Origin: Escherichia coli
GTDB lineage: Bacteria; Pseudomonadota; Gammaproteobacteria; Enterobacterales; Enterobacteriaceae
Reading direction: 5' to 3' (one strand)
Length of the DNA: 64,000 bases
NCBI RefSeq assembly: GCF_013315695.1
Contig: NZ_CP054353.1
The notes under the pieces were generated by a model, which worked only from the letters and a program-made list of their open reading frames with translations, was not told where the DNA came from and did no database searches. Below, one piece after another: positions 25,630 through 45,005 of the stretch. The translations under genes and the position numbers were made by a program. Numbering within the stretch: the first letter of the stretch is position 1; each line of letters starts with the position of its first letter.

Positions 25630-26499
25630 ATGAGCACTTTTAAACCACTAAAAACACTCACTTCGCGCCGCCAGGTGCTGAAAGCCGGTTTGGCTGCCCT
25701 GACGTTGTCAGGAATGTCGCAAGCCATCGCCAAAGACGAACCTTTAAAAACCAGCAACGGACACAGCAAGCCGAAAGCCAAAAAATCTGGCGGCAAACGT
25801 GTCGTTGTTCTCGATCCAGGCCACGGCGGGATTGATACCGGAGCGATCGGACGCAACGGTTCGAAAGAAAAACATGTGGTGCTGGCGATTGCTAAAAACG
25901 TCCGTTCCATTTTGCGTAATCATGGCATTGATGCGCGTTTAACGCGTTCTGGCGATACGTTTATCCCACTATACGATCGCGTTGAAATCGCCCATAAACA
26001 TGGCGCAGATCTGTTTATGTCAATTCATGCCGATGGCTTTACCAACCCGAAAGCTGCCGGTGCTTCGGTATTTGCCCTCTCTAACCGCGGTGCTAGTAGC
26101 GCAATGGCGAAATACCTGTCTGAACGCGAAAACCGCGCTGATGAAGTTGCCGGTAAAAAGGCGACTGACAAGGATCACCTATTGCAGCAAGTGCTGTTTG
26201 ATCTGGTGCAAACCGATACTATTAAAAACAGCCTGACGCTCGGCTCGCATATTCTGAAGAAGATTAAGCCGGTGCATAAACTGCACAGCCGCAACACCGA
26301 ACAAGCCGCGTTTGTGGTGTTGAAATCGCCGTCGGTTCCGTCGGTGCTGGTGGAAACCTCGTTTATCACCAACCCGGAAGAAGAGCGGCTGTTAGGCACG
26401 GCGGCGTTTCGCCAGAAAATCGCCACAGCGATTGCCGAAGGCGTGATCAGTTATTTCCACTGGTTTGACAACCAGAAAGCACACTCGAGAAAGCGATAA
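25630..26499 (+). CDS. amiA: N-acetylmuramoyl-L-alanine amidase A (Tat-exported)
   Basis: 289-aa ORF with twin-arginine signal (SRRQVLKAGLAALTLSG); Amidase_3 fold. Confidence 0.93.
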   Translation: MSTFKPLKTLTSRRQVLKAGLAALTLSGMSQAIAKDEPLKTSNGHSKPKAKKSGGKRVVVLDPGHGGIDTGAIGRNGSKEKHVVLAIAKNVRSILRNHGIDARLTRSGDTFIPLYDRVEIAHKHGADLFMSIHADGFTNPKAAGASVFALSNRGASSAMAKYLSERENRADEVAGKKATDKDHLLQQVLFDLVQTDTIKNSLTLGSHILKKIKPVHKLHSRNTEQAAFVVLKSPSVPSVLVETSFITNPEEERLLGTAAFRQKIATAIAEGVISYFHWFDNQKAHSRKR

Positions 26500-27402
<903 letters not shown>

Positions 27403-27407
27403 CTCCC

Positions 27408-28460
27408 TCACCCCCACTCCCGCATCCGCTGATGCAGCGTCAGTGACGGCTTCTCGGCAAACAGTTGCTGATAATCCGTAGCAAATTGCCCAAGATGCCA
27501 GAATCCCCACTGCATGGCGGCGTCTTTTACCGTCATACTTTGCGACCACGGGCTTATCAGTTCGCGGCGCACGGCGTTCAGGCGAATGCGTTTCAGCCAC
27601 GCGTTTGGGCCAATGCCTAAAATAGCGTGAAAAGCGTTTTGTAGCGTGCGGCGGCTGACATGTAGTTGATTACACAAGTCCAGCACCGTCACCGGTTCGG
27701 ACATGTTTTCCAGCACATATTCACGGGCGCGGGAAAGCAATCGACGGTAACTCTGATGACTGATGCTTTCCGCCGTCACCATTGGCTGCGCTTCTTCCAG
27801 CATCGCCCCCATCGCCATTAGCAAGTTATCCCCCAGCACTTTTCGCACTGCAGGCTGATGGAGATTTTCCGGGTTCTCGCAAAACGTCGCCAGCGCCTGT
27901 TGGACAAAGCCCCACAGAGCGGCTTTATGCTGCTCTTTCACTTCCAGCGCCGACTGGCTACGCAGCATATGTAATACCCGATCCGGATTATGCAAAAAGT
28001 TAGCCTGACGAGTGATGACATCTTCAGAAAGCACTACGCCCAGGATCGTGTAATCGTCCGGCGTACTTAATTCAAACTCGGTTCCACCCGGGCGCGTCGC
28101 AATTTCTGCGCTTCCCAGACATTGCGAACCGATAAATCCCTGCTCACCGCGCGTCGCCGGAATGCCAAACCAGAACGAGTTCGGCCAGACCAGGCACGAC
28201 TGACGCAGCGCCAGACCGGTGTATTCACGAAAAACCTGAATATCATCGAGTAGAATTTCCGTAAATTCACCATGAAACTTGCCCGGATGCAGCTGATCGT
28301 AAATCTGCTGCCAGGCGGTAATCGTCAAAGCATGTTCATAGACATCCGTTGTCTGTCGTTGATGAACATTATCCACTTCGACCTTCGGCGTGAGCTTCAG
28401 GTTTTCGGGTAAGGGTTCATGATAAAGATGGTGCAAATTGGCTGTACGGGTCTTTTTCAT
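27408..28460 (-). CDS. eutR: AraC-family transcriptional activator of the eut operon
   Basis: 350-aa ORF with C-terminal AraC HTH; last gene of eut operon. Confidence 0.93.
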
Positions 28461-28505
28461 GATGTTAATGCCGGGTGTTGTAGGACACCCGGCACCTCCG
28501 ACAGG

Positions 28506-29012
28506 TTAATGGGGCTTGAGACGGTAACGACTACTGCGTTTACGTAACGTCCCGGCAGAAAAGAGCTGTTCGAGCGCATTTCTGGCTTTTTCCAGCGGCC
28601 AGCCAAAGTGGGCAGCCACTTCTCCTGCCGTCATTCCCTGACGTACTGATGTTAACAGCGCCAACAACTCGTCAGCAGATTCCGCGTCGATAACTGGCGC
28701 GTCGGGTTCCTTTACGGGTTGCTTCGGCTGGCGGTTAAAGCCAGTAACCAGCCACTGGGTGTCATCGTCTGGCCGACCGATCTCCTTACGGCTGATGACA
28801 CGCCCGGTACGCATCGCGGCAGCACAACCTGCGTCCAGCGCCGCACGACACGCCGCCAGATCGCCTTCCACCACCAGCGTTAGGCGACCAGGGTCAAGCA
28901 CTTCATGGCTGAGCAGACGAACGTTAGCTGCTTTGAGCATGGCATCCGCTGCATCTATCGCGGCGACCATGCCGTCAACTTCCAGCAATCCCAGTGCATT
29001 GATCATCGGCAA
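28506..29012 (-). CDS. eutK: Microcompartment shell protein EutK (BMC domain + C-terminal HTH)
   Basis: 168-aa ORF with N-terminal BMC domain (INALGLLEVDGMVAAIDAADAMLKAANV). Confidence 0.9.
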   Translation of the reverse strand: MPMINALGLLEVDGMVAAIDAADAMLKAANVRLLSHEVLDPGRLTLVVEGDLAACRAALDAGCAAAMRTGRVISRKEIGRPDDDTQWLVTGFNRQPKQPVKEPDAPVIDAESADELLALLTSVRQGMTAGEVAAHFGWPLEKARNALEQLFSAGTLRKRSSRYRLKPH

Positions 29013-29018
29013 CCTCCG

Positions 29019-29678
29019 TTACGCACGCTGGATTGGATTACGCGCGATTTCCAGCACTGCATCGGTAAAGGCGTTACAGGCTGCTTTACACGCGGCCTGG
29101 CTACCGGTTAAAAATGCTGCCGAGTAGTTGGTTTCAGACGGTGGCGGGACATAGGTCACCAGCTGCACGTCGGCAGATTTCAACGCTGCATCAATGCCGT
29201 AGGTCGCTTCCAGCGGCGGTGCCACCAGATACGCCATCGGATCGCCAAGCGTGATCCCGGCGGTTGATGAGAGATAAGAACCGGTACGCGAAACGACATG
29301 TGCCAGGAAGGCTGTATTTTCTGCGTCATTAGCCCACTGGAAAGCAGCGCCATTTTCAATATGCGCAACCATCGCATCCAGACCAGCACGCACTTCCGCC
29401 GGGTTTGGCCCACCCAGCATAATCAGCACTTCACCGGCAGTCGGTGACGGGCCGTGTGCGGCTCCCGCATACAGCGAGCGGCCATACACCACTTCCACCA
29501 TCGCCTGCTTGGTCGCTTCGTCAGCCGCAATGTAGGTGACGTCATCTGAATCAGCAGAAATCAGCCCGAGGCTACGAATATGCGGCGGCAATTTCAGTTC
29601 ACGTGCAAATTCGGCGTTAACGGAGGCAATCACCCGCATGGCGGTTACCGACGGTCGAATCAAATCTAAAGCTGGCAT
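29019..29678 (-). CDS. eutL: Microcompartment shell protein EutL (tandem-BMC)
   Basis: 219-aa ORF. Confidence 0.92.
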
Positions 29679-29687
29679 GATGCCTCC

Positions 29688-30575
29688 TTATCGGGTCATG
29701 TTGATGCCGGATGCTTTCTGCTCCAGCATACGTTTCGCCAAATCCACAATGACGGCTGCGGCTTCAACCGGCGGCGTGCCGCCCTGGTGAATGTTAGAGA
29801 TACAGGTGCGATCGGCCTCAACGGTGGTCGCCATACGCGGCGAGTAAACGGCGTAGCAGGAGAGGCTTTCTGACTGCCCCAACCCCGGACGTTCGCCCAC
29901 CAGCAGGATCACCACTTTCGCACCGAGGATCTCACCGATCTGATCTTCAATCTTCACGCGACCATAACGAACAAAGAATGGCGTACCAACTTTCAGCCCG
30001 GCCTGTTTCAGGCCCGCCATCAGCGGCGGCAGGATCTCTTCGTAGTTCACGGTGATCGCATCAGTTGACAGGCCATCAGAAATAACGACCTGCACGTCCG
30101 GATTAGCAACACACTGTGCTTTCAGCGCTTCAACAGCTTCTGCACACAGGCGGCGGCCCATATCCGGGCGAGTCAGGTAGAGATTTTTGTCGCTGATTTC
30201 GGAGCGGACTTCCAGCAAGCCCTGCGCTTTCACCCACTCTTCCGGCACTTCTTTCAGTACAGTATCTTTCGAACGAGAGTGATCGGCCAGGAAACGCAGC
30301 AACGCCTGGGTACGCGGACGCGGACCGGCACGACCGGTACAAACGCGGGCCACGGTGCTGCGACGCAGTTCTGTTAATACGTCTGCGCGATGCGGGTTTT
30401 CAACACCAATCCACGCTTTTGCTTCCGCAGAGCCTAAATCCAGCGCGCAGCTTTCCGAGGTCACCGGTGCCGCACAGGTGGTGGTGGCGCACTTTGCTTC
30501 TGACGGCGCGGGGGCCGCTTGTCCCATTGACGCCATCACGCTGCGTACAATTTCTTCAATCTGTTTTTGATCCAT
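29688..30575 (-). CDS. eutC: Ethanolamine ammonia-lyase small subunit
   Basis: 295-aa ORF; follows eutB. Confidence 0.95.
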
Positions 30576-30595
30576 GATGTGTTATCTCCGCGTCA

Positions 30596-31957
30596 TCAGA
30601 AGAACAGTGACGGATCGCCCGCCCGTTTGGTCAGGCGACCGTTTGCCATAATGCCCATGCTTTCCAGCCAGCGTTCAAACTCCGGTGACGGGCGCAGGTT
30701 GAGTAACTGACGCACAGTGGCAGTGTCGTGGAATGCGGTGGTCTGATAGTTGAGCATGATGTCATCACCCAGCGGCATCCCCATGATGTAGTTGCAGCCT
30801 GCGGTGGCGAGCAGGATCATCAGGTTTTCGTTGAGGTTCTGGTCAGCGTCAGCGTGGTTGGTGTAGCAGCAGTCACAGCCCATAGAGATGCCGCTCAGCT
30901 TGCCCATAAAGTGATCTTCTAAGCCCGCGCGGATAATCTGGCGGTCGTTGTAGAGATACTCCGGCCCAATAAAACCGACCACGGTGTTGACGATAAACGG
31001 ATCGTAATGACGCGCCAGCCCATAGTTACGCGCTTCCATCGTCACCTGGTCAGCGCCGAAGTTAGCGCCAGCAGACAGCGCCGAACCTTGTCCGGTTTCG
31101 AAGTAGAGGCAGTTTTCCCCAGCGATACGGTTAAACTCTGCACCCACTGCGCGCGCTTCGTCGAGCATCGCCAGCTCCACGCCAAACTCTTTCAGCCCTT
31201 TTTCGCTGCCGCAAATACTCTGGAAAATCAGCCCGCCCGGTGCGCCGCGACGAATCGCTTCGATCTGGGTGGTGACGTGCGCCAGTACGCAGCCCTGAGT
31301 TGGGATGTTGAATTTGTCGATCACGCCATAGATGGTATCCAACACGCGGCTTAAGTTTTCCACGTCGTCCGTCACCGGGTTAACGCCGATCACCGCATCG
31401 CCCACCCCGAAGGAAAGCCCTTCGTAGATTTGCGCGGCGATACTTTGCACATCGTCACGGGTATCGTTTGGCTGCAAGCGGGCGCTAAAGGTGCCCGGAA
31501 TACCGATGGTGGTATTGGCCTTTTTGATCACCGGCATTTTCTTCGCGCCGTAGATCAGGTCCGCGTTAGAACTGATCTTCGCCACCGCCGCGACCACTTC
31601 CGAGGTCAGCCCTTTGCGGGTAAAGGCAATGTCGTCAACGCTGGTTTCGTCGCTCAGGACGTATTCACGCAGTTCGCTGATGCTCCAGTTTTTAATCTGG
31701 TTGTAGGCCGTTTCGTTAACATCGTCCTGAATCAGCCGCGTCACGCAGTCATCTTCATAGGCAATCACCGGATTATTGCGGATGTCCGCTACGGTCATTT
31801 CCGACAACACCTGCTTTGCCGCCACGCGCTCCTGTGAACTTGCCGCTGCAACGCCTGCCAGCACATCCCCCGAACGCAGTTCGTTGGCTTTAGCCAGCAC
31901 CTCTTTTACATCCTTAAACTGATATACATTGCCGAACAATGTGGTCTTTAGTTTCAT
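30596..31957 (-). CDS. eutB: Ethanolamine ammonia-lyase large subunit
   Basis: 453-aa ORF. Confidence 0.96.
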   Translation of the reverse strand: MKLKTTLFGNVYQFKDVKEVLAKANELRSGDVLAGVAAASSQERVAAKQVLSEMTVADIRNNPVIAYEDDCVTRLIQDDVNETAYNQIKNWSISELREYVLSDETSVDDIAFTRKGLTSEVVAAVAKISSNADLIYGAKKMPVIKKANTTIGIPGTFSARLQPNDTRDDVQSIAAQIYEGLSFGVGDAVIGVNPVTDDVENLSRVLDTIYGVIDKFNIPTQGCVLAHVTTQIEAIRRGAPGGLIFQSICGSEKGLKEFGVELAMLDEARAVGAEFNRIAGENCLYFETGQGSALSAGANFGADQVTMEARNYGLARHYDPFIVNTVVGFIGPEYLYNDRQIIRAGLEDHFMGKLSGISMGCDCCYTNHADADQNLNENLMILLATAGCNYIMGMPLGDDIMLNYQTTAFHDTATVRQLLNLRPSPEFERWLESMGIMANGRLTKRAGDPSLFF

Positions 31958-31968
31958 AAGTCGTTCCC

Positions 31969-33372
31969 TCAGGAAGGAAATGCGAGTGATTTCACCGTCA
32001 CCGGCACAACCGATCCGCCAAAAAGAGGCGTACCAATGTCGATATAGTCCCCCGCGCGGACAATCACTTCGTCAATGACTGCCAACGGGAGTTGTTGTAG
32101 CTGTGGGCGCAACAACATGCCCAGAGCTTTACCAAAGTCCTGCCCGGCCACCACCAGCAGGGGATGCGGATTCGGAAAACGCGCGACGAAATCGACCAAC
32201 GCGTTGATGACCGTCAGTACCGCGGCGTAACGCACAGGCAGCGAGGCGGGAAGCGCCAGCACGTACGCGTCAGTTTTAGGATCAAGATCCAGCTGAATCA
32301 GCGCCTGTTGCCAGGCACTCACCAGATCCGTTTCATCAATCGGGATCGCCACCGGCAAATTGCGCAGCGGCAGTTGTACGCCCTCCAGCCAGATTGTGCT
32401 GCCAGAGAGCGAAAGGGTATGAGCTCCCGCGCCAATCACCGTGGCGCGCACGGTTTGCGCCGGAAACTGCACGTTCATCTCACGCAGGCGCGGATGGTCA
32501 TGCAGCGCCGTTGCCAGAAGCGGGCCAATATCGGCAAAACAGAACGGGTCGGCGGGCTGGTGGCGATAACATTCGCCAACGCCGCCAGAAAGCGTAATGA
32601 TTTCGGGCGTAACACCTACGGGCAGCAAACCGGTTTGCATCAATGCCTGCGCGAGCGGCGAAAGCGTTCCGTCAATCACTTCGACAATCAGCTCTGCCAT
32701 CCGCCGGGTAACCTGCACCAGCTGCGCGCCAGTCAGCGAACGGGCGTCGGTGCCTGCACCGAAGCACTCATCCACAATCATCTGCCCCGGTTTATGAGCG
32801 TAAACCACGCGCCCCTGGCTGTCGGTTTCCAGCAGGCGACCGCCGACATTGAGGCAGGCGGTGCCGCTGATTTTTCCGGCATCGAACAGGGCGTAGTTCG
32901 CGGTGCCACCGCCGATGTCGATATTCAGTACCCGACACAGCCGTTGTTCAGAAAGGGTTTGCGCCCCGGCACCGTGACCGGCGATCACGGATTCGAGATG
33001 CGGCCCGGCGCTGGCGACGACAAAATCGCCCAGCGACTGGGAGAGCGTCATCACCGCCGGGCGAGCGTTGCGGGTTTTCGCGCTTTCACCGGTGATAATG
33101 ATGGCACCAGAATCAACGCTTTCCGGCGCAATGCCCGCAGCCTGATATTGCTCGAGGATTAAGGTTTTCAGTTCCGCTTCTTTTAAACCACCCTGTTTAT
33201 CGACAGGGGTAAAGAACACCGGGCTTTGCCAGCTAATTTCGCGTTTGATGAATTCGTAGCGCGGCACCTGCGACACCGCCGCACGGTTAACCAGCTCCAG
33301 GTGGGAGAAGATCACCTGGGTGGTGGTGGTGCCGATATCGATACCGACGCTCAGTAGCTGGCGAGTGTTCAC
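31969..33372 (-). CDS. eutA: Ethanolamine ammonia-lyase reactivase
   Basis: 467-aa ORF; only 11 bp separate its stop from the eutB start (no prophage between them). Confidence 0.95.
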   Translation of the reverse strand: MNTRQLLSVGIDIGTTTTQVIFSHLELVNRAAVSQVPRYEFIKREISWQSPVFFTPVDKQGGLKEAELKTLILEQYQAAGIAPESVDSGAIIITGESAKTRNARPAVMTLSQSLGDFVVASAGPHLESVIAGHGAGAQTLSEQRLCRVLNIDIGGGTANYALFDAGKISGTACLNVGGRLLETDSQGRVVYAHKPGQMIVDECFGAGTDARSLTGAQLVQVTRRMAELIVEVIDGTLSPLAQALMQTGLLPVGVTPEIITLSGGVGECYRHQPADPFCFADIGPLLATALHDHPRLREMNVQFPAQTVRATVIGAGAHTLSLSGSTIWLEGVQLPLRNLPVAIPIDETDLVSAWQQALIQLDLDPKTDAYVLALPASLPVRYAAVLTVINALVDFVARFPNPHPLLVVAGQDFGKALGMLLRPQLQQLPLAVIDEVIVRAGDYIDIGTPLFGGSVVPVTVKSLAFPS

Positions 33373-34595
33373 GATTGCGCCTCCGCTTCGGTTTTAGCCG
33401 TGGTCGCGTCTTCTTTTGGCACCAGCATCATCGCCACGCCAATCGCCGTTACGCCGCCGATCAACTTGCCGACAATCATCGGGAAGATCATGGCGTTCAT
33501 GTTGGCAGCGGCGAAGCCTAAGTGGTCGCCCAGGGCGAAAGCAGCGGAAACGGCGAAGGCACAGTTGATGACTTTGCCGCGGGTATCCATCTGCTTCATC
33601 ATGCCAAACATCGGGATGTTGTTGGCAAGCGTTGCCACCATGCCGGCTGCCGCGATGTTGTTCATATTCAGCACCTTACCGACGCTCATCAGCGGTTTTT
33701 CAAACCAGCGAGTCAGCAGCAGCACCATCGGATACGCCCCTAACAGAACGCAGGAGATCGAGCCGATAACTTCAATGGCGCGCATCACTTCACCGGGTTT
33801 ATCGCCAGGGGCCATAAAGATAGGATCAAGGCCCGGGATCAGTTCCCAGCCAAGGAGGAATTTCACTACCGCAGCGGCAAGACCGAGGGTGATCAATGCA
33901 ACGAGGAATTTGGCGAAGATCTGGAAGCCGTTGATCATTTTTTCCGGGATGAATTTCAGCCCCAGCGCCACCAGCACCGCAACGATAAGTACCGGGATCA
34001 TGTTCATCAGGATCAGCGCAAAGGTGAATTCCACTGGCTGACCGTTGATCTGCACACCGGAGTACATAGCCACCAGACCACCGGCAATACAGCCAATCGG
34101 AATGGTCACAATGCCCGCCAGCACGCCGAGCGCCAGATAACGACGGTCAGAAGGTTCGATAATGCCGAGCGCCACCGGAATGGAAAACACAATCGTTGGC
34201 CCCATCATCGACCCGAGAATTAATCCAGAGTATAGCCACGCTGCTACGTCGCCGCCCGCCAACTCTTTGGCGAGGAAGAAGCCGCCCATATCGCACGCCA
34301 GCAGTGTTCCGGCGAACATTGACGGGTTTGCGCCGAGCATTTCGTAAACCGGGATAATCACCGGTCCGAGTACGTGGGCCAGAACAGGTGCCAGCGCGGT
34401 CATACCAACCATCGCCAGGCCCAAAGCGCCCATTGCCATAAAGCCTTCTTCGAACTGACCGCCGGATCCTTCGATACTTTTACCGAACTTACCGAGGAAA
34501 CGAGCAGAACCGCCGAACTGCGACAGGATCCTGTCTACGGCAGCTATCAGCATAAAGAACATCATGATGTACATGATGATTTCGTTAATTCCCAT
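33369..34595 (-). CDS. eutH: Ethanolamine permease
   Basis: 408-aa multi-TM ORF; 4-bp overlap with eutA. Confidence 0.95.
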   Translation of the reverse strand: MGINEIIMYIMMFFMLIAAVDRILSQFGGSARFLGKFGKSIEGSGGQFEEGFMAMGALGLAMVGMTALAPVLAHVLGPVIIPVYEMLGANPSMFAGTLLACDMGGFFLAKELAGGDVAAWLYSGLILGSMMGPTIVFSIPVALGIIEPSDRRYLALGVLAGIVTIPIGCIAGGLVAMYSGVQINGQPVEFTFALILMNMIPVLIVAVLVALGLKFIPEKMINGFQIFAKFLVALITLGLAAAVVKFLLGWELIPGLDPIFMAPGDKPGEVMRAIEVIGSISCVLLGAYPMVLLLTRWFEKPLMSVGKVLNMNNIAAAGMVATLANNIPMFGMMKQMDTRGKVINCAFAVSAAFALGDHLGFAAANMNAMIFPMIVGKLIGGVTAIGVAMMLVPKEDATTAKTEAEAQS

Positions 34596-34626
34596 CGCCT
34601 TTACTCCCTGTTAGTTGTTATTTATT

Positions 34627-34709
34627 GGCGGATGCGGCGTGAACGTCTTATCCGCCCTACATGTGCAATCCCGAAGGCCGGATAAGACGCGGCAAGCGTC
34701 GCATCCGGC
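34627..34709. repeat. BIME (two inverted REP elements) between eutH and eutG
   Basis: GGCGGATGCGGCGTGAACGTCTTATCCGCCCTAC ... GGCCGGATAAGACGCGGCAAGCGTCGCATCCGGC, canonical REP palindromes in opposite orientation. Confidence 0.6.
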
Positions 34710-34711
34710 AT

Positions 34712-35899
34712 TTATTGCGCCGCTGCGTACAGACCGACAATCTGCTCCAGGCTGGCGGTACGCGGGTTACTGCGCAGACAAACATCTTCCAGCGCGGCCT
34801 GCGCCCATGCACCGTAATGCGCAGATGTCGCACCAATATCGCCCAGTCGTTTACCAATCCCGACTTCCGCAATCAGCTCACTTACCGCGTTAATAGCGTC
34901 ACGATCGTCGGATTTTTTAGTTCTCAGCGCCCGGCCAATCTGACTAAACCGATCACGACAAACCATCCGGTTAAATTCCATCACCGTTGGCAGCAACATA
35001 GCGTTCGCCAGACCGTGCGGAATATGCAGCGCCGCCCCTGGCTGATGCGCCATCGCGTGGCACAACCCAAGTCCGGCACTGGAAAACGCCATTCCCGCCA
35101 TACATGAAGCCAGCAACATGCTCTCGCGGGCGGCAAGGTCGTGACCGTAGCCCACCGCTTTCGGCAGCGATTTGCCAATCATCGCAATGGCACCAATCGC
35201 CAGACTGTCGGTAAACGGTGTGGCGTTCAGCGCGCTGTACGCTTCAATGGCATGGGTTAACGCATCAATGCCAGTCATCGCCGTGACATGCGACGGCACA
35301 CCTTCGGTCAATGCGGCGTCGAGGATCGCCACATCCGGCATCAGCGAGGCATGGGCTAACACCTGTTTGCGCCCGCTTACCGCATCGATAATCACCGTCA
35401 CGTTAGTCGTTTCAGAGCCGGTTCCGGCGGTCGTTGGAATGGCAATCAACGGCAGGCGCGGTTGCAGAACGCTGGTTTCTGACATTTCTGCCAGCGTGCT
35501 ATCCGGGTTCGTCACCAGCAACGCCACGGCTTTCGCCGCATCCAGCACCGAGCCGCCGCCAAACGCGATCACCCCGTCACAACCTGATTCACGCAACTGC
35601 GCCACGGCTGCACACACGTCGGTGATGCATGGTTCGCCCACCGGACATGGCCAGAGCGTCATGGCGATACCTTTAACGGCCAGGCTACGCGTCAGCCCGG
35701 CGGTCATCCCGGTCTGATGCAAAAAGCTGTCTGCCATCACGAACAGATGTTTCAGCCCACGCGTTTGCGCTTGCTGCCCACAACTGCTCACCGCGCCCGG
35801 ACCGCAAAGCGTCACCGGTGGAACGCTAAATGTTTTTACCCGTTGCAGATTCAGGGTATCGAACGCCTGAAAGAGCGCGGTCTGCAATTCATTTTGCAT
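34712..35899 (-). CDS. eutG: Iron-containing alcohol dehydrogenase EutG
   Basis: 395-aa ORF. Confidence 0.95.
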   Translation of the reverse strand: MQNELQTALFQAFDTLNLQRVKTFSVPPVTLCGPGAVSSCGQQAQTRGLKHLFVMADSFLHQTGMTAGLTRSLAVKGIAMTLWPCPVGEPCITDVCAAVAQLRESGCDGVIAFGGGSVLDAAKAVALLVTNPDSTLAEMSETSVLQPRLPLIAIPTTAGTGSETTNVTVIIDAVSGRKQVLAHASLMPDVAILDAALTEGVPSHVTAMTGIDALTHAIEAYSALNATPFTDSLAIGAIAMIGKSLPKAVGYGHDLAARESMLLASCMAGMAFSSAGLGLCHAMAHQPGAALHIPHGLANAMLLPTVMEFNRMVCRDRFSQIGRALRTKKSDDRDAINAVSELIAEVGIGKRLGDIGATSAHYGAWAQAALEDVCLRSNPRTASLEQIVGLYAAAQ

Positions 35900-36725
35900 A
35901 TAGCCCCTCCGCTTTCTCTCGCCCGCTACTGGCGATCGCCAGCGGGGTCATAAACAAACTGTGCTGCGGTAAATGCACCTGTAACGCCGGGAATTGTTTG
36001 CGAAACAGTTCCGCCACGCCCGGTTGCATACAAGAGCCGCCCGCCAGCCATAAATCCGTAATGCCCTGCCCTTCAATATGCCGGGCGACGATGTCCGCCA
36101 TTTTTTCGTACACCGGTTTCACCGCGGGCCAAATCTCTTCACCGTGACCGCGCTTGTACTGCTCTGCCTCTTCCAGCGAAATACGACGATTTCCGGCGAG
36201 AGTCAGAGAGATGTGATGTCCGCCGGTCGCTTCATCCGCCGAGTACGTCACCTTGCCCTTTTTCACGATGGCAATACCAGTAGTGCCACCGCCGATATCC
36301 ACTACACCGGCGTTGTCCAGTTGCAGCAGATCCGCGACTGCGGTTGGCTCATCCAGTACATGGCTCACTTCCAGTCCGGCAGATTCCAGCACGTTGATGG
36401 AAATACGCGGGTCCGTACCTGGAGGAAAAGAGGTCGCCGCATGGCTAAAACGGCGACCGAATTGCTGCTCGAGGGTGTCGAGATGGCGACGAACAATGGT
36501 GACCGCACCGAAGAAATCCCAGACGATGCCGTCGCGGACCACATCGGCCCAGTCGAGGCATACCGCCACCGGCAGACCGTCGCGGTCGACAACCATCGAC
36601 ACCACATCGCAGGTGCCCAGATCCACCCCCAGCCACAGCGGAGATTCCGTCGCGGCGGGCGTCTGGTTACACAGCGTTGCCGCCGTTTGCAGACGTGGGG
36701 TGAGCCATTGTTCATCGTGCGCCAT
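35889..36725 (-). CDS. eutJ: Hsp70/actin-fold chaperone-like protein EutJ
   Basis: 278-aa ORF; overlaps eutG start. Confidence 0.94.
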   Translation of the reverse strand: MAHDEQWLTPRLQTAATLCNQTPAATESPLWLGVDLGTCDVVSMVVDRDGLPVAVCLDWADVVRDGIVWDFFGAVTIVRRHLDTLEQQFGRRFSHAATSFPPGTDPRISINVLESAGLEVSHVLDEPTAVADLLQLDNAGVVDIGGGTTGIAIVKKGKVTYSADEATGGHHISLTLAGNRRISLEEAEQYKRGHGEEIWPAVKPVYEKMADIVARHIEGQGITDLWLAGGSCMQPGVAELFRKQFPALQVHLPQHSLFMTPLAIASSGREKAEGLYAK

Positions 36726-36735
36726 CGGTTACTCC

Positions 36736-38139
36736 TTAAACAATGCGAAACGCATCGACTAATACACAGCGACGCAGACGGACAAACGTCCGCGCGCTGG
36801 TTACCCCTTCACCGGTTGGCGTGGTGATGGTCATGGTGGTCCAGCCTTCCCCGCCCAGCCCCAGCCCGGCAATGCACGGTCCGTTCTTAACGAAAATGCT
36901 GGTATCAATGGCATTCGCCATCTGGTTCATGTTCTCGATATTGCGCGAGTGCATTGCCGCCGTGTGGTGGCAACCGCCTTCCAGTTTCACCGCCAGCGCA
37001 ATGGCATCCGCCACGTTGGCGACGCGCACGACGGGCAGCACCGGCATCATCAGTTCAGTCACAGCAAACGGATGTTCTGCGGTGGTTTCTACAAACAGCA
37101 GTCGCGTTTGTTCCGGAACTTTAAGGCCGATTGCCGCCGCGATTTTCGCCGCATCGCGACCAACCCAGTCACGGCTGACGGTGCCTTTTCCGCGCTCGTC
37201 GATATTTTTCAGCAACACCGGTTGCAGCTGCTGCGCCTGCTCTGCGGTCAGTTTCACCGCGTGCTGGCCTTCCATCAGACGCATCAGTTCATCGGCTACG
37301 CTATCCACAACAATCAGTACCTTTTCGTCGGCACAAATGATGTTGTTATCGAAAGACGCGCCTTTGACGATGGACTGAGCAGCACGGGCGAGGTCGGCGG
37401 TTTCATCCACCACTACCGGCGGGTTGCCAGCGCCTGCGGCAATCAGACGTTTATTGGTGTGTTTACGCGCCGCTTCTACTACCGCTTCGCCGCCGGTCAC
37501 CACCAGCAGGCCGATGCCCGGAAACTTGAACAAACGTTGAGCGGTTTCGATATCCGGATTTGCCACAGTAACCAGTAAGTTTTCCGGCCCGCCTGCGGCA
37601 ACAATCGCCTGGTTGAGCAGCGTGATCGCCCGCTGGGAGACTTTTTTCGCCGCCGGATGCGGGGCAAAAATGACGCTGTTGCCCGCGGCAATCAGGCTGA
37701 TGGCGTTGTTAATTACGGTTGCCGCCGGGTTAGTGGAAGGCGTCACCGAAGCCACTACGCCCCAGGGCGCGTTTTCAATTAAAGTCAGGCCGTTGTCACC
37801 GGTCAGCACTTGCGGAGAGAGGCACTCAACGCCTGGTGTGCCGCGCGCCTGAGCGACGTTTTTGGCAAATTTATCTTCAACGCGCCCCATGCCGGTTTCA
37901 CTGACGGCAAGTTCCGCTAAATCTCTGGCGTGTTTTTCGCCTGCTTCACGAATGGCAGCAATGGCTAACTGGCGCATTGCCACGCTTTTTAACCCTTGCT
38001 GGGCGACTTTGGCTGCCGCAACGGCGTCATCCAGGGACGCGAAAACGCCCATCTCATGAACGGCGGCGGGCGGCGTGTCACTGCTTTGCATTTTCAGCAG
38101 TACCGCTTTCACCACCTGTTCAATATCCTGTTGATTCAT
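36736..38139 (-). CDS. eutE: CoA-acylating acetaldehyde dehydrogenase EutE
   Basis: 467-aa aldehyde dehydrogenase-family ORF. Confidence 0.95.
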   Translation of the reverse strand: MNQQDIEQVVKAVLLKMQSSDTPPAAVHEMGVFASLDDAVAAAKVAQQGLKSVAMRQLAIAAIREAGEKHARDLAELAVSETGMGRVEDKFAKNVAQARGTPGVECLSPQVLTGDNGLTLIENAPWGVVASVTPSTNPAATVINNAISLIAAGNSVIFAPHPAAKKVSQRAITLLNQAIVAAGGPENLLVTVANPDIETAQRLFKFPGIGLLVVTGGEAVVEAARKHTNKRLIAAGAGNPPVVVDETADLARAAQSIVKGASFDNNIICADEKVLIVVDSVADELMRLMEGQHAVKLTAEQAQQLQPVLLKNIDERGKGTVSRDWVGRDAAKIAAAIGLKVPEQTRLLFVETTAEHPFAVTELMMPVLPVVRVANVADAIALAVKLEGGCHHTAAMHSRNIENMNQMANAIDTSIFVKNGPCIAGLGLGGEGWTTMTITTPTGEGVTSARTFVRLRRCVLVDAFRIV

Positions 38140-38150
38140 GATGTTCTGCC

Positions 38151-38438
38151 TTATTTGTGGAAAATGACCTGACCGCCAGACACCACCTCATCGACGATGC
38201 CAATCACGCACAGATCGACCGGTGACGTTTCGCTTTTATGCGCCTGGCGGGCGGAACTGCCACTCACCAGCAACACCCACTCCCCGGTTCCCGCGCCAAT
38301 ATTGTCGATGGCGACGGCGCATTGCCCGTCAGGATTACCTTGTGGATCAATCATTTCCACCATCAGCAATTTGTCATGCGCCAGTCCGTGATGGCGTACG
38401 GTACAAACAATTTGTCCAGTGACGACTGCCAGTTTCAT
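38151..38438 (-). CDS. eutN: Microcompartment vertex protein EutN
   Basis: 95-aa ORF MKLAVVTGQIVCTVRHHGL... Confidence 0.93.
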   Translation of the reverse strand: MKLAVVTGQIVCTVRHHGLAHDKLLMVEMIDPQGNPDGQCAVAIDNIGAGTGEWVLLVSGSSARQAHKSETSPVDLCVIGIVDEVVSGGQVIFHK

Positions 38439-38544
38439 ACCCGCCTCCGTGGCGTATTTCAGGTAAAAGCTCCCCCTACCCTCCGCAGAAGGTAAAATGA
38501 TAAAGGAGAGAGCGTGACGCCCGAATCGACGTCACACAGGGTGA

Positions 38545-38838
38545 TTACAGGTTGCTGCTATCGCCTTTCAGGCCGATCGGGAACACTTCTTCCAGGTCGC
38601 CGTGCGGACGCGGGATAACGTGTACAGATACCAGCTCGCCGATACGCTGTGCCGCTGCGGCACCTGCATCGGTCGCGGCTTTACAGGCTGCAACATCACC
38701 ACGAACCATGGCAGTACACAGGCCGCCGCCAATCTGCTTAACACCAACCAGCTTGACGCGCGCAGCTTTAACCATCGCGTCAGAAGCCTCAATCAGTGCA
38801 ACCAGGCCCCGGGTTTCGATCATTCCTAATGCTTCCAT
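38545..38838 (-). CDS. eutM: Major microcompartment shell protein EutM (BMC-H)
   Basis: 97-aa product from ATG at 38838 ([26 protein letters not shown]...) with GAGGAAA RBS; ORF track start at 38880 is an extension. Confidence 0.93.
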
Positions 38839-38876
38839 TGTGCTTTCCTCTTTATCAGGGTCCAGAACGGGACCGT

Positions 38877-39893
38877 TCATTCAACCAGTGTTTGTAAACT
38901 GCTTTCGCGGTTCACTTCTGTCTGACGCGGCACAGCTGCCACCAGCGCCAGCTCGATAATTTCCTGCACGCTACAACCACGAGAGAGATCGTGCATCGGC
39001 GCGGCAAGTCCTTGTATCAATGGCCCGACGGCACGATATCCGCCGAGTCGTTGTGCGATTTTGTAGCCAATATTTCCGGCTTCCAGCGACGGAAAAACCA
39101 TCACATTGGCCTTGCCCTGTAGCGGGCTGGCAGGCGCTTTTTGCGCCGCCACTTCCGGCACGAAGGCGGCGTCAAACTGCAACTCGCCATCGACTACCAG
39201 CTTTGGTGCGCGCTCACGGACGATTTCTGTCGCCTGCTGGACGTTGGCAACGCAGGGGTGACGGGCACTACCATTGCTGGAAAACGACAGCATCGCCACG
39301 CGCGGTTCTTCTCCGGTGATGGCCTGCCAGGTTTCGGCGCTGGCAAGCGCGATATCCGCCAACTGCGCCGCCGTCGGCTGTGGCACCACGCTGCAATCGG
39401 CAAAACCCAACGCCGGACCGCTGTACTGTGGCAGCATCAGGAAAATGGATGAGAGCGTTTTACAGCCTGGCTGCAAGCCGATAATGCGTAATCCGGCACG
39501 CAGCACATTCGCCGTGGAAGAGAGGTTGCCCGCGATACAGACATCCGCTTTACCGGCGCTGACCATTGCTGCGGCGAACATCAGCGGGTCGGTAAGTTTT
39601 TCCAGCGCATCCGGCGGCGTTTTTTCGCCCGCGCGGGCCAGCCAGCGATGAGCAAATTCTTCCCGCATTGCGAGGTTGCCATGCGGATCAATCACCTGTA
39701 GCCCGTCCATCGCCACGCCATGACTGAGCGCAAACTGACGAAGTTCAAACGGATTGGCGACCAGAATGGGCGTTGCCAGACCTTGTTGATGTAAATATTG
39801 CGCAGCTTTCAGCACACGTTGATCTAACGCATCCGGAAAAACTACTCTGGCGGGCGCTCGCAACGCCAGTTCACGACAACGTTCAATAATCAT
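38877..39893 (-). CDS. eutD: Phosphotransacetylase EutD
   Basis: 338-aa ORF. Confidence 0.95.
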
Positions 39894-40693
39894 TGCGTTT
39901 CCCCCAGTCGTTGTTGGATCTGCTTCACCGTTAGCGGCTGCTTCGTTACGCTCAGGATCATCATCACGTAGACCGTGCTGGAAAGGCGGTTCAGCGCCTG
40001 CAAAATGTCCGGGCGTAATACTTCAAAGCTGCGGGTGATAAAGACCTGCGCCGCTACGGTTTCGGTTTCCCGCACTTTGGTGCGTAGCAGATTTAGCAAC
40101 GCCGCATCGCGCCCGTGGCTGGCTTCCGGCACCAGATGATCGTGGTCGAGATAACGCAGCGGCTGGTGAGAAAGCCGATGCAGATCTTCGTCAGAAAGCC
40201 CGACAATCGCTTGGCAGGCCAGCGGTTCCCCCAGCGCATCGGCACGCATAATGTTGCCAAGACGCGAACGGATATCCGCCAGCCACGGCTGCCACGGTTC
40301 CGCCAGTTCAATTTGCAGCCACACTGCCAGCGCAATGGTGCTGTCGAGAACAGCGCGAAAAGCCAGGCGCGGATCGCTTTTGGCAACCATTTTTTCCGCC
40401 GACAGGTGAGTCAGCGTGTCCGGCTTTTTCGCCACCGGCTGGCGGCACAGTTCGCAGCACGCCTGCGGATGTTCATCACTACTGGTCAGCCCGTGAACGG
40501 GCTGCGGCTGCTGCTGTTCATCGTCAACAAACAGGCGGCCCTGCTCGTCAATAAACTTGATGCGCAGATGGCGGCTTTCCAGTAACTCCCGGGCAGAGGG
40601 CGTCAGGCGACTGTCCGCAGGGAGATGGATCTCTGCGCCTTCGCTAAGCGTATGATTCGCTCTTAGCCATGCTTCGGTGATGAAATCTTTCAT
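39890..40693 (-). CDS. eutT: Cob(I)alamin adenosyltransferase EutT
   Basis: 267-aa ORF; 4-bp overlaps with eutD and eutQ. Confidence 0.93.
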
Positions 40694-41391
40694 AGGGATT
40701 GCCAGTTAGCCGGCCAGGCGACATACAGGAATTTCACACTGGATGTCGTACCAAATTCGATGCTGGAGCCTTTCGGGATAAACATCACATCGCCTGCTTT
40801 GGCGATCATGGTTTCGCCTTCGTGGCGAACGTGCAGTTCCCCTTCCAGTACCATATCGATTTCGTCATAGTTGAGGGTCCACGGGAAGAAGGCGTTCTCC
40901 CACTGCATAAAACCGGCGGCCATGCTGCTGCCGTCGTCTCCGGTGACCAGATCCGTTAATCCGACGCAGTGTGGCTGTGCGCCGTCGAAACGACCAAACT
41001 TGACGCTGCTGCCATCAATCACTTTGATGCCGCCTTTGCCGGTCACCGATTTGAAGCTCGGCTGCATTGCACCCTGCTCCAGTGACTGTTTTTCCTTCAT
41101 CACTTTTTCCATCAGCTGCGCGACCAGGCTTTCGGTAAACTGGCCTTCCGGTAGCTGGGCGATGATGGTTTCGCGGATGCGCTGGCTTTCGGTTTTATCG
41201 GCTGGCACGCTGGCGGGAACGGACGTCGTTACCGCAGTCGATTCATCACATTCGGTGATGGTAAAACCCAACAGATCAGCCACTTCACGAGCTTCCGGGG
41301 TAATAATGCTGGCGCGCAGAACCACGGACATTGCCAGTTCGCCGCGCGCGTGTGCTTCACGAATATCATTCGCTGTGATGAGTTTTTTCAC
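40690..41391 (-). CDS. eutQ: Cupin-fold protein EutQ
   Basis: 233-aa ORF. Confidence 0.92.
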   Translation of the reverse strand: MKKLITANDIREAHARGELAMSVVLRASIITPEAREVADLLGFTITECDESTAVTTSVPASVPADKTESQRIRETIIAQLPEGQFTESLVAQLMEKVMKEKQSLEQGAMQPSFKSVTGKGGIKVIDGSSVKFGRFDGAQPHCVGLTDLVTGDDGSSMAAGFMQWENAFFPWTLNYDEIDMVLEGELHVRHEGETMIAKAGDVMFIPKGSSIEFGTTSSVKFLYVAWPANWQSL

Positions 41392-41845
41392 CTGCTTCCT
41401 CCTGTTTGGTGAGAGATGCCAGATAATCCACCAGTTGCTGCACGCTTTGCGGGTCGTGGCTGTTTAGCTCGAAAATCGGCTCTTCGAAGCCCGTCTCAAG
41501 CAATAACTTTCGCGTTGCGGCGACGTCAGCATCTGGCATGTCCGTTTTACTGATGACGGCGATTTGCCGTTTGCTGACGCCAATATCCAGCAACCCGGCA
41601 GGCAACCGACTTTCCGGGTCATTCGCGCCGTGGACATAGATCAGCATGTCCACATCCTGTAGCGTGGTAATTAAGGCGTGATACCAGCGGGGATGGCTAA
41701 AATATTCACCCGGCGTATCAATATCGCCCTTATCATTAAATTCCACGGCCTGTGTTTTTCTTGCGAGGGTATAATTCCCCTGCAACGCATTAAATAACGT
41801 TGTTTTTCCTGCCCCGACGGTACCCACAAACGCAATTCGTTTCAT
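41366..41845 (-). CDS. eutP: P-loop NTPase EutP
   Basis: 159-aa ORF with Walker A GTVGAGKTT; its GAGG RBS is retained 3' of the IS1 insertion point. Confidence 0.92.
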   Translation of the reverse strand: MKRIAFVGTVGAGKTTLFNALQGNYTLARKTQAVEFNDKGDIDTPGEYFSHPRWYHALITTLQDVDMLIYVHGANDPESRLPAGLLDIGVSKRQIAVISKTDMPDADVAATRKLLLETGFEEPIFELNSHDPQSVQQLVDYLASLTKQEEAGEKTHHSE

Positions 41846-41874
41846 GAATGCCTCGTATTAACTTTTGGTCATTT

Positions 41875-41883
41875 CACAAAGCG
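41875..41883. repeat. IS1 target-site duplication, left copy (CACAAAGCG)
   Basis: Identical 9-mer directly abuts both ends of the IS1 element. Confidence 0.85.
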
Positions 41884-41898
41884 GGTAATGACTCCAAC

Positions 41899-42402
41899 TT
41901 ATTGATAGTGTTTTATGTTCAGATAATGCCCGATGACTTTGTCATGCAGCTCCACCGATTTTGAGAACGACAGCGACTTCCGTCCCAGCCGTGCCAGGTG
42001 CTGCCTCAGATTCAGGTTATGCCGCTCAATTCGCTGCGTATATCGCTTGCTGATTACGTGCAGCTTTCCCTTCAGGCGGGATTCATACAGCGGCCAGCCA
42101 TCCGTCATCCATATCACCACGTCAAAGGGTGACAGCAGGCTCATAAGACGCCCCAGCGTCGCCATAGTGCGTTCACCGAATACGTGCGCAACAACCGTCT
42201 TCCGGAGCCTGTCATACGCGTAAAACAGCCAGCGCTGGCGCGATTTAGCCCCGACATAGCCCCACTGTTCGTCCATTTCCGCGCAGACGATGACGTCACT
42301 GCCCGGCTGTATGCGCGAGGTTACCGACTGCGGCCTGAGTTTTTTAAGTGACGTAAAATCGTGTTGAGGCCAACGCCCATAATGCGGGCTGTTGCCCGGC
42401 AT
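41899..42402 (-). CDS. insB: IS1 InsB (transposase C-terminal frame, expressed as InsAB' by -1 frameshift)
   Basis: 167-aa ORF matching IS1 InsB (…[21 protein letters not shown]…). Confidence 0.93.
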
Positions 42403-42596
42403 CCAACGCCATTCATGGCCATATCAATGATTTTCTGGTGCGTACCGGGTTGAGAAGCGGTGTAAGTGAACTGCAGTTGCCATGTTTTACGGCAGTGAGA
42501 GCAGAGATAGCGCTGATGTCCGGCGGTGCTTTTGCCGTTACGCACCACCCCGTCAGTAGCTGAACAGGAGGGACAGCTGATAGAAACAGAAGCCAC
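42321..42596 (-). CDS. insA: IS1 InsA (transposition inhibitor / N-terminal transposase frame)
   Basis: 91-aa [26 protein letters not shown]…; the A6C slippery run lies in the insA/insB overlap. Confidence 0.93.
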
Positions 42597-42646
42597 TGGA
42601 GCACCTCAAAAACACCATCATACACTAAATCAGTAAGTTGGCAGCA

Positions 42647-42970
42647 TCACCCACAAAGCGTATAATTTAATAAGCGTCCTAAACCACTGACGGTTTGTGA
42701 TAACGCTTCTTCTACTGCGCCCACCGAGCCATAAATCACCAGCGCGCCGCTAAAACGGTCGAGAAAACCGATATGCACATCGGCGGCTTTCAACGCTAAA
42801 TCACCGGCGATCATCGCCGTTTCTCCGGGAGTTAGCGTCATAATGCCAATTGCGCCCGCATCCGGAACGCCGATTTTCTTCGCCAGTTCCTCGCCGGGAT
42901 GCGCGATGAGATGCGCCAGTGTGACCTGTTTACCGGGCACAAATTCCTGAATGATGCGTTCTTTATCCAT
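42647..42970 (-). CDS. eutS: Microcompartment shell protein EutS with C-terminus rewritten by the IS1 insertion
   Basis: Product from ATG at 42970 ([21 protein letters not shown]…, permuted BMC domain); reading frame enters the IS1 inverted repeat and stops at 42647-42649. Confidence 0.88.
42652..42660. repeat. IS1 target-site duplication, right copy (CACAAAGCG)
   Basis: Identical 9-mer directly abuts both ends of the IS1 element. Confidence 0.85.
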
Positions 42971-43335
42971 GAGTCGCCGCCTGTGAAAAACTTTCGTGTA
43001 TCGTGACAATTTTTCGTCAGAGTAAATAACAAAATTCGGCAAGCGCGTTTAAAAGGTGAGGTAGATCACGAACAATGGGGAAAATACTTTATGCAAAGAA
43101 AATCACATACATCACATGAATACAAACAGGAGTCGATAAGTTTTATTTATCATATGTTACCCACCCCATTTTTAATGGTTCTTCGCATAACCCTATGTAG
43201 CATTTATAATAATTATCAGAATACATATCCCATGAACTGTTGTATTCTGAAAATATTATTATACTCACCCCATTTAAGGTACAACATAAACGATGAGTTT
43301 ATTCAGGGCATAAAAGAAATGGATGGATACCTGTA
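42971..43335. promoter_or_regulatory. Divergent AT-rich control region: eut operon promoter (upstream of eutS) and promoter of the glycosyltransferase gene
   Basis: 365-bp visibly AT-rich intergenic region between divergent eutS and the GT gene; the main eut promoter is known to lie upstream of eutS; individual sites not resolved. Confidence 0.4.
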
Positions 43336-44406
43336 ATGAAAATTCACTACCTTGTCACCACTCTCGAAACGGGAGGCGCTGAATTTGCGATTCCTGATAT
43401 TGTGACTACTCTACAAGATCTTGGTCATGAGGTGAAAATTTATGTATGTGAACCCCGAGATATGGGCGCGGCACCGCGTCTGAAAGCGGCCGGTTTATCC
43501 TGGTGTTTATTATCAAATCGGCGGCGTTCTGTTCCAGTGCTTGTCGGTGCTTATCTGGCAAAAATCATTTACGACAAACCCGATCTCATCTGGACTTCGT
43601 TAAGTTGGGGGACGCGTATTGGACAATGGGGCGGCCGACTTATGGGCATTCCGGTTATCAGTTTTAAACATAGCGCCAGCGTAAAACCAGCAACCTGGCG
43701 TATGCGCAGCATGTCACGTTTATGGATTGGCGATTCTGCAACCGTAACTCAATACCTGCATGAAACCATGCGGATCCCGAAGCAACAAGTGATGTGCTGG
43801 CCTTTTTTTCAGGCTAATCCGCAAGCTGCTCAAGCGAAAAAGTGGGACGGGGTATCAGTTTTACAATTAGGCACCGTTGGTCGCCTGCATGAAGTTAAAA
43901 ATTACGCAGGATTAATTACTGCACTCGCTTCGTTTGTCGATAAAAACCCGCAATTGCGCTCGCGAATCCGACTAACCCTTCTCGGTGAGGGAGCCGAACA
44001 AGAGGTTTTGAAAAAGACCATAACACAACACGCCATGGAGGATGTAGTTTGTTTAGCGGGGTTTTCTGCGGATATCGAAAATTTTCTTGCCGGATTACAT
44101 GTCTATATCCAAACTTCCCGCTACGAAGGGATGTGCCTCGCCGCACACGAAGCCATGAATGCAGGGCTTGCGATCATTACGCCCCCTGTAGGTGAACTTA
44201 AAGAATCGGTAATTGATGGTCATACCGGCTATATACTTAATGGCGAACTAACTCCAGCACTGGAGGAAGTACTTAACCGTATTTTCAATGAACCCACAGA
44301 ATTACAACACTATGGGCAAAATGCGCGTCAGTATGTATTACAGAAATTCAGCCATGAAAATTTTGTCCAGTCTGCAATCAACATTGTTAATAGACTTATT
44401 CACTGA
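43336..44406 (+). CDS. Glycosyltransferase, GT-B fold, family-4-like (retaining), orphan accessory gene
   Basis: 356-aa ORF; N-terminal Gly-rich motif (TLETGGAEFAIPDIVTTLQDLGHEV) and C-terminal EX7E motif (YEGMCLAAHEAMNAGLAIITPPVGE) typical of GT4 enzymes; lower G+C than neighbours. Confidence 0.75.
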   Translation: MKIHYLVTTLETGGAEFAIPDIVTTLQDLGHEVKIYVCEPRDMGAAPRLKAAGLSWCLLSNRRRSVPVLVGAYLAKIIYDKPDLIWTSLSWGTRIGQWGGRLMGIPVISFKHSASVKPATWRMRSMSRLWIGDSATVTQYLHETMRIPKQQVMCWPFFQANPQAAQAKKWDGVSVLQLGTVGRLHEVKNYAGLITALASFVDKNPQLRSRIRLTLLGEGAEQEVLKKTITQHAMEDVVCLAGFSADIENFLAGLHVYIQTSRYEGMCLAAHEAMNAGLAIITPPVGELKESVIDGHTGYILNGELTPALEEVLNRIFNEPTELQHYGQNARQYVLQKFSHENFVQSAINIVNRLIH

Positions 44407-44409
44407 ATA

Positions 44410-44445
44410 AGGCAGTAAAAAGGCATTTTTTGGTACTGCCTTTTC
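44410..44445 (+). terminator. Terminator-like hairpin after the glycosyltransferase gene
   Basis: GGCAGTA…TACTGCC stem with inner A5/T5 pairing, followed by TTTTC. Confidence 0.4.
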
Positions 44446-44990: not shown

Positions 44991-45005
44991 ATTTAAAGGA
45001 ATGAA

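Follow-up and report, generated by a model that had tools for sequence, protein, structure and literature searches.

A recent IS1A insertion in eutS that probably separates a coding-intact ethanolamine utilisation operon of Escherichia coli from its inducible promoter

Introduction

Insertions of IS1 are classically strongly polar in either orientation, an effect that is exerted via Rho and relieved by rho mutations, and in the classical gal and lac IS1 mutations the intact downstream genes are silenced by Rho-dependent termination in the element and regained by its precise excision. In enteroaggregative E. coli, the first Rho-dependent terminators predicted beyond aggR are those within IS1A, and deletion of the IS1A raises the aggR transcript (PMC8595720). 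The ethanolamine utilisation (eut) operon of E. coli is organised such that all eut genes are transcribed from a promoter, P1, directly upstream of eutS, which is activated by EutR together with ethanolamine and adenosylcobalamin (PMC5821096, PMC4643982); eutR alone has a weak constitutive promoter of its own, P2 (PMC5821096). In K-12 BW25113, where the CPZ-55 prophage lies between eutA and eutB, eutS and eutR respond to ethanolamine, eutB is uninduced, no microcompartments are formed and the strain does not grow on ethanolamine (PMC7617246), and scarless removal of CPZ-55 has been used to rebuild an intact eut+ operon (PMC11334477). Here we describe a 64-kb stretch of E. coli DNA from contig NZ_CP054353.1 (hereafter the window) in which a complete 17-gene eut operon carries a 768-bp IS1A element within the last codons of its first gene, eutS. 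We believe, with a probability of roughly 0.7, that induction of eutP through eutK is largely lost in this strain, and that EutR persists at a basal level without positive feedback.

The locus is like that of K-12 in that a mobile element lies within a coding-intact 17-gene eut operon and the distal genes would be cut off from P1. At the same time, CPZ-55 is a 6.8-kb element between eutA and eutB that opposes eut transcription, whereas the window holds a 768-bp IS1, co-oriented with the operon, at the end of the first gene; 15 genes would thereby lose P1 in the window, as against 4 structural genes with CPZ-55 in K-12. The likeness to the gal and lac mutations lies in the 768-bp IS1, the 8-9 bp target duplication and the position early in a polycistronic operon. 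Those alleles, however, are laboratory-selected mutants whose polarity was measured, whereas the allele described here, carried by the clinical-carriage isolate MSB1_4I, is a natural one whose polarity is inferred. A third comparison is with activation of the cryptic bgl operon by IS1 and IS5, where IS1 likewise enters the AT-rich 5' region of a catabolic operon at many sites and in both orientations (PMC11043490, PMC9678765). The bgl insertions, though, are found ahead of the promoter, where they disrupt H-NS repression and so turn on a silenced operon, whereas the IS1 in the window lies downstream of the promoter, in the first gene, and would be expected to block.

Structure of the insertion

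From 26000 to 45000 the window is 100% identical, over the full length, to the chromosome of E. coli MSB1_4I (NZ_LR898874.1), an isolate from a rectal swab in Australia. The RefSeq annotation of that chromosome lists 17 of 17 eut genes, flags none as a pseudogene, and gives the order on the window's minus strand as eutR-K-L-C-B-A-H-G-J-E-N-M-D(pta)-T-Q-P, an IS1A-family transposase, and eutS. The locus context is that of EUT1, with maeB-talA-tktB at one end and hemF-amiA at the opposite end.

The element is an IS1 of the IS1A type (41884..42651, minus strand; 768 bp) with the insA and insAB' arrangement and a programmed frameshift, labelled by RefSeq 'IS1A family transposase, programmed frameshift'. 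Its left inverted repeat adjoins eutS, and with the left end facing eutS, insA is co-oriented with eut transcription. The ends are canonical, the element starting with GGTGATGCTGCCAACTTACTGAT and finishing with ATCAATAAGTTGGAGTCATTACC; the terminal inverted repeats of about 23 bp (GGTGATGCTGCCAACTTACTGAT and GGTAATGACTCCAACTTATTGAT) are imperfect, as in the IS1 family, and an A6C motif for programmed -1 frameshifting lies at IS1 nt 307, between insA and insB'. The element is bounded on both sides by a perfect 9-bp direct repeat (CGCTTTGTG in the eut direction), one copy upstream at 42652..42660 and the other downstream at 41875..41883, both on the minus strand; this falls within the 8-9 bp range of IS1 target duplications. 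Past the element come the second CGCTTTGTG copy, the displaced end of eutS, a 12-nt spacer and eutP, and when IS1 and one repeat copy are removed in silico the exact wild-type sequence is recovered, collinear with relatives. Our reading is that an IS1A entered eutS at codon 107 in a recent transposition, duplicating 9 bp of its target. In every respect that can be checked in sequence, the locus is a standard EUT1 operon and the element an IS1.

The insertion point lies 17 nt ahead of the end of the native stop codon. The native gene ends in TAT ACG CTT TGT GAA ATG ACC AAA AGT TAA and is interrupted after TGT G; reading then continues into the IS1 left end as TGT GGG TGA, which replaces the C-terminal EMTKS with a single Gly. 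The resulting eutS' (42647..42970, minus strand), with its TGA stop inside the IS1 left end, encodes 107 aa as against 111 aa in K-12. Residues 1-106 are native and identical to those of the crystallised E. coli EutS (PDB 3I96), and the Pfam BMC domain match (residues 40-102) is unaffected. Since Salmonella EutS is dispensable for both microcompartment assembly and growth on ethanolamine (PMC12487888), the altered EutS tail is unlikely to matter for function, and the block to transcription is what would count. The displaced final 17 nt of native eutS (AAATGACCAAAAGTTAA) and the native 12-nt spacer with the eutP ribosome-binding site occupy 41846..41874 on the minus strand; as judged from its sequence, this ribosome-binding site is kept after the insertion.

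Coding integrity of the operon

All 17 genes are present on the minus strand between 27408 and 42970 of the window, in the single order eutS-P-Q-T-D-M-N-E-J-G-H-A-B-C-L-K-R. Each annotated gene was translated and compared with its counterparts in K-12 MG1655 and in the close relative MS 21-1. From eutP to eutR, 16 of 16 genes have exactly the MG1655 length, with a proper start and stop; the 16 proteins carry 0-7 substitutions each relative to K-12, and 13 of the genes are identical to those of MS 21-1. Following eutS' in the direction of transcription, and identified by RefSeq annotation together with our own translation, the intact genes on the minus strand are eutP (159 aa; 41366..41845), eutQ (233 aa, GTG start, overlapping eutP by 26 bp; 40690..41391), eutT (267 aa; 39890..40693), eutD (annotated pta, 338 aa; 38877..39893), eutM and eutN (97 and 95 aa, both identical to K-12; 38545..38838 and 38151..38438), eutE (467 aa; 36736..38139), eutJ (278 aa; 35889..36725), eutG (395 aa; 34712..35899), eutH (408 aa; 33369..34595), eutA (467 aa, GTG start; 31969..33372), eutB (453 aa; 30596..31957), eutC (295 aa; 29688..30575), eutL (219 aa; 29019..29678), eutK (166 aa; 28506..29006) and eutR (350 aa; 27408..28460). 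Comparison with K-12 found no CPZ-55 prophage between eutA and eutB in the window.

An earlier note on this DNA, made from the letters alone, had proposed that all 17 eut genes stand in canonical order with full-length frames, only the eutS tail being altered, and had called the operon coding-intact. Annotation and translation bear this out: the 16 other genes are of K-12 length, and when the translations of the 17 genes were set beside those of K-12 and MS 21-1 in a search for internal stops and frameshifts, none came to light. The same note was less accurate in its details. It described the junctions as the usual overlaps of 1-11 bp, whereas only five junctions overlap (P/Q by 26 bp, Q/T by 4, T/D by 4, J/G by 11 and H/A by 4) and the rest are K-12-like gaps of 9-116 bp; its end coordinate of 43042 belongs to a TTG-extended open reading frame, the true eutS ATG being at 42970; and the IS1 that it placed at the first gene boundary interrupts codon 107 of eutS and so lies outside the eutS-eutP spacer. 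We also considered a decaying or pseudogenised operon and rejected it, because no gene is broken: the window holds no frameshift, stop or deletion beyond the five-residue eutS tail.

One structure between the genes deserves a separate remark. The eutM-eutN spacer (38512-38537, minus strand) contains a GC-rich hairpin with a 10-bp stem right after the eutM stop, followed by a pyrimidine-rich tail (TCTCTCCTTT). EutM is very abundant relative to EutN (PMC11334477), and the hairpin may be an mRNA-stabilising or attenuating structure, which would fit this imbalance.

Predicted effect on transcription

The P1 and EutR-binding region, placed directly upstream of eutS by published work (PMC5821096, PMC4643982), would correspond to 42971..43070 on the minus strand; a search for a EutR box sequence gave no consensus. 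These 100 bp, which directly precede the eutS ATG, match K-12 at every position, so P1 should fire, and its transcripts would then enter IS1. A consensus scan found no promoter-like site from the IS1 right end toward eutP, and in the 14.6 kb downstream (27300-41900, both strands) it found a single weak site, inside eutN, as against 7.0 +/- 2.4 in dinucleotide-preserving shuffles. The operon body between 27300 and 41900 is, in other words, depleted of consensus-like sigma-70 matches.

Within the element, a scan for intrinsic terminators in the sense direction returned nothing convincing. The sense RNA of IS1 is C-rich and G-poor at IS1 nt 108-240, and its composition is compatible with a Rho mechanism.

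Consider, then, a cell of this strain that is exposed to ethanolamine and B12. Induction from P1 should halt inside IS1, because eutP through eutK have no known promoter besides P1, and IS1 is strongly polar with no outward promoter predicted toward eutP. The strain would be Eut-negative or very weakly positive, and EutR would still be made from P2 at a basal level, its positive feedback lost. The earlier description of the operon as 'transcriptionally interrupted' is in this sense a reasonable inference from the sequence.

The insertion may also have created a promoter of its own. A predicted hybrid sigma-70 promoter on the plus strand (42638..42666) takes its -35 element, TTGGCA, from the IS1 left end and its -10 element, TATAAT, from eutS, with a 17-bp spacer between them; it matches the consensus at 11 of 12 positions, is the only strong match in the scan, and is directed antisense, across eutS and the P1 region, to the GT4 gene that begins at 43336. 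This predicted promoter could interfere with P1 or drive the GT4 gene.

Relatives and age of the allele

With IS1 removed, the window differs from the IS1-free MS 21-1 (NZ_CP146670.1) by 7 mismatches and 1 gap in 24 kb, and from the sister isolate AF3 (NZ_OZ547117.1; blood, UK) by 1 mismatch in 16.9 kb. AF3 carries the same IS1 with the same right-hand junction. A deletion of window positions 42652-43183, adjoining IS1, has removed eutS in full from AF3 together with 213 bp ahead of the gene, and its 16 remaining eut genes are intact. A search of complete E. coli genomes for this junction found it in MSB1_4I and AF3 and in no other, and genomes of the MSB1_4I clade hold about 39-40 IS1-matching places each. 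By these comparisons the insertion is real, recent and restricted to its lineage. The AF3 deletion bears the signature of an IS1-mediated adjacent deletion, and in this descendant the insertion has already led to a further step in which eutS and the upstream DNA that contains P1 are gone. The -10 element of the predicted hybrid promoter is also removed by the AF3 deletion.

The IS1-free relative shows variation of its own in the eut genes. In MS 21-1, eutE (13737-15140) has an internal stop, Q255*, and in eutM (15559-15840) a 1-bp indel alters the C-terminus, giving 93 aa as against 97; further variants are C168 in EutD and C70 in EutL. The eut damage in MS 21-1 may be decay of independent origin, or it may stem from errors in sequencing.

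IS1 at the eut 5' end across E. coli

We surveyed 5,426 complete E. coli genomes with synthetic queries in which an operon segment is placed between IS1 and reverse-complemented IS1, an arrangement that detects either IS1 orientation near the segment. The counts are lower bounds, because IS1-rich genomes were missed at random, on one occasion including the genome of the window itself. Positions in the survey are given as u, the coordinate on the IS1-free sequence in the eut direction, with u=1 at window 43400. A query for the junction found at least 10 further genomes in which IS1 is joined to eutS or eutP, and these loci are independent insertions with target duplications of their own, at K-12 reference positions 653-938. 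Over the first 6.3 kb of the operon at least 45 genomes were IS1-positive, and nearly all of the elements, located from span lengths, lie at u168-965, where they occupy the maeB-eutS intergenic region, the terminal 80 bp of eutS, the spacer or the first 190 bp of eutP. Farther down these 6.3 kb there are only four (two in eutQ, one in eutD and one in eutJ), and the remaining 9.1 kb, from the eutJ 3' end to eutR, hold one IS1 site, in eutK, common to 8 genomes. The tally in some 800 bp therefore comes to 50 genomes or more, with about 26 sites and 28 or more events. The other 14.2 kb hold 5 sites, so that the two parts differ about 90-fold per kb.

Eight further loci, mapped to the base pair, confirmed 8-9 bp duplications and the occurrence of both orientations. 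Two 9-bp targets (K-12 ref2 1453-1461 and 1484-1492) have each been used twice, in opposite orientations and in unrelated strains. Some insertions have been remodelled: in a group of 13-14 genomes (for example O177:H21, with IS1 at 401-1168), IS1 joins the end of maeB to eutP +130, an allele that deletes the upstream region, eutS and the 5' end of eutP, and in WS4437A-1 (401-2395) two inverted IS1 copies surround an inverted eutS segment. More than 87% of genomes retain a contiguous eut operon.

The insertions pile up in the runs of lowest GC content in the operon, u29-460 (minimum 0.24) and u684-808 (minimum 0.28). IS1 has a known preference for AT-rich DNA and leaves duplications of 8-9 bp (PMC5009759), and AT-rich, H-NS-bound DNA is a general hotspot of transposition (PMC11335895). 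Two control regions, both taken from the window, are instructive here. The 9.1 kb between talA and narQ contain three AT-rich runs whose minimum GC is 0.30-0.34, and are hardly hit (IS1 in at least 3 genomes). The acrD-ypfM-yffB intergenic region (59764-60193), with a minimum GC of 0.17, has IS1 in at least 28 genomes, at 18 or more positions within about 430 bp and in both orientations. IS1 density thus tracks AT content, and the cluster at the eut 5' end is a matter of IS1 target bias in IS1-rich lineages. The choice of site in the window would likewise reflect the AT preference of IS1, the position of the eutS 3' end and upstream region as the most AT-rich parts, and an IS1-loaded host lineage. 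The acrD-ypfM-yffB run is also the most AT-rich of the window, 17 kb away from eut, and in the window itself it holds no IS1.

A search for papers on IS1 in eutS or eutP, or on insertion sequence elements in the E. coli eut operon, found no relevant one. The clustering at the eut 5' end is the only fresh item here, and it is explained by a known target bias; the rest of the locus is nothing new in kind. As the 'natural test' that the earlier note took it for, the strain is not special: at least 50 complete genomes have IS1 in the same 800 bp or so, and the CPZ-55 interruption has already been studied experimentally (PMC7617246, PMC11334477).

Neighbouring sequence

At one end the operon borders on hemF and amiA and at its opposite end on a GT4 glycosyltransferase gene, maeB and talA, and the remainder of the 64-kb window is ordinary core genome. 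The GT4-family gene (43336-44406, plus strand; 356 aa) lies between maeB and eutS and is divergent from eutS. It is lineage-specific, being absent from K-12 and present in the MSB1_4I clade and some other clades, and its Pfam match, to 'GT4-conflict', is weak and below threshold (24.0 bits, with a cut-off of 26). Past the GT4 gene, homology to K-12 restarts about 110-160 bp upstream of the eutS ATG.

Discussion

Overall, we favour a polar insertion that uncouples eutP through eutK from P1, and at the same time several considerations weigh against this reading. The polarity of IS1 is strong but not absolute, and transcription begun at an induced P1, or at the promoter in the IS1 left end, could cross the element and allow some expression of eutP-K; the sense RNA is G-rich beyond IS1 nt 316, that is, after insA, which is atypical of sites where Rho loads; and E. 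coli may have internal eut promoters beyond those mapped so far, a consensus scan being blind to non-canonical ones. All 16 downstream genes are undamaged, which a very recent neutral event and continued use of the operon would explain equally well. Low eut expression, such as that from leaky Ptrc complementation, is enough for the use of ethanolamine as a nitrogen source (PMC11334477), and for this reason a leaky insertion, in which read-through or unmapped internal promoters keep the strain Eut-positive, at least for nitrogen, with a near-silent phenotype, deserves to be kept in view as an unlikely but realistic outcome. It would accord with the intact downstream genes and eutP ribosome-binding site, with the lack of a predicted sense-direction intrinsic terminator in IS1, with RNA past insA that is a poor Rho substrate, with the dispensability of EutS (PMC12487888), and with reports that low eut expression suffices for growth on ethanolamine and that over-expression is harmful (PMC11334477). 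What holds us to a polar block is that IS1A lowers transcript levels in enteroaggregative E. coli (PMC8595720), that the K-12 prophage interruption abolishes eutB induction, from which it appears that no strong internal promoter rescues the distal genes (PMC7617246), and that AF3 has lost eutS and the upstream DNA entirely. No outward promoter is predicted, and classical genetics found IS1 to be strongly polar in both orientations.

An origin of the junction in misassembly, with an IS1 copy misplaced into eutS in a repeat-rich genome, is scarcely credible. The genome does hold some 40 near-identical IS1 copies, where misjoins can occur, but the element is complete at 768 bp with a perfect 9-bp target duplication, excision of IS1 and one duplication copy gives the exact wild-type sequence, and the same right junction recurs in AF3, which was sequenced independently on another continent. 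More thought is due to the proposal that loss or uncoupling of eut has been selected in some host-associated lineages, through microcompartment cost or acetaldehyde toxicity, with EutR kept as a sensor and the 5' IS1 hits enriched by selection as well as by target bias. Points in its favour are the 28 or more independent IS1 events at the 5' end, some of them followed by deletions or an inversion that left eutS and upstream DNA missing or flipped, one such allele being common to 13-14 genomes; the independent eutE stop and eutM frameshift in the IS1-free MS 21-1; the slower growth caused by eut over-expression (PMC11334477); and the regulation by EutR of targets beyond eut (PMC5821096, PMC4643982). 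Against this, an unrelated and more AT-rich intergenic region is hit equally densely and less AT-rich controls hardly at all, so that AT content alone predicts the pattern; were loss of function selected, hits anywhere in the 10 kb upstream of eutBC would serve equally, yet per kb such hits are some 90 times rarer; the operon is contiguous in more than 87% of genomes; and eut is advantageous in the gut and in urine (PMC6652756, PMC5821096). We regard selection of this kind as quite improbable. Because the controls show that IS1 density follows AT content, eut-specific selection need not be invoked for the 5' clustering, and once both control regions had tracked AT content we largely rejected it. 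A broader conjecture is that the eut 5' end acts as a species-wide IS1 sink, where insertions repeatedly part the whole operon from its one inducible promoter, and that selection could favour this recurrent, partly reversible switch-off in host-associated lineages rich in IS1; EutR would then serve alone as an ethanolamine sensor, and the window would stand at an early and fully reversible stage. This too we hold to be improbable.

The insertion is a common event of an already understood kind, one of many equivalent in the species, and RefSeq already annotates it so. For this window the consequence is small, as the likely polar loss of induction follows from fifty-year-old genetics. The natural alleles, with their varied sites and both orientations, would form a handy panel for studying IS1 polarity in a native operon. 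The wider meaning lies in how eut is scored: calls based on gene presence would give a eut-positive score to this strain and to 50 or more further complete genomes, though they are probably Eut-negative, and anyone surveying ethanolamine use in gut or urinary E. coli should accordingly look for IS1 at the eutS-eutP junction and in the promoter region. In this context, scoring by gene presence overestimates the capacity for ethanolamine utilisation in about 1% of complete E. coli genomes.

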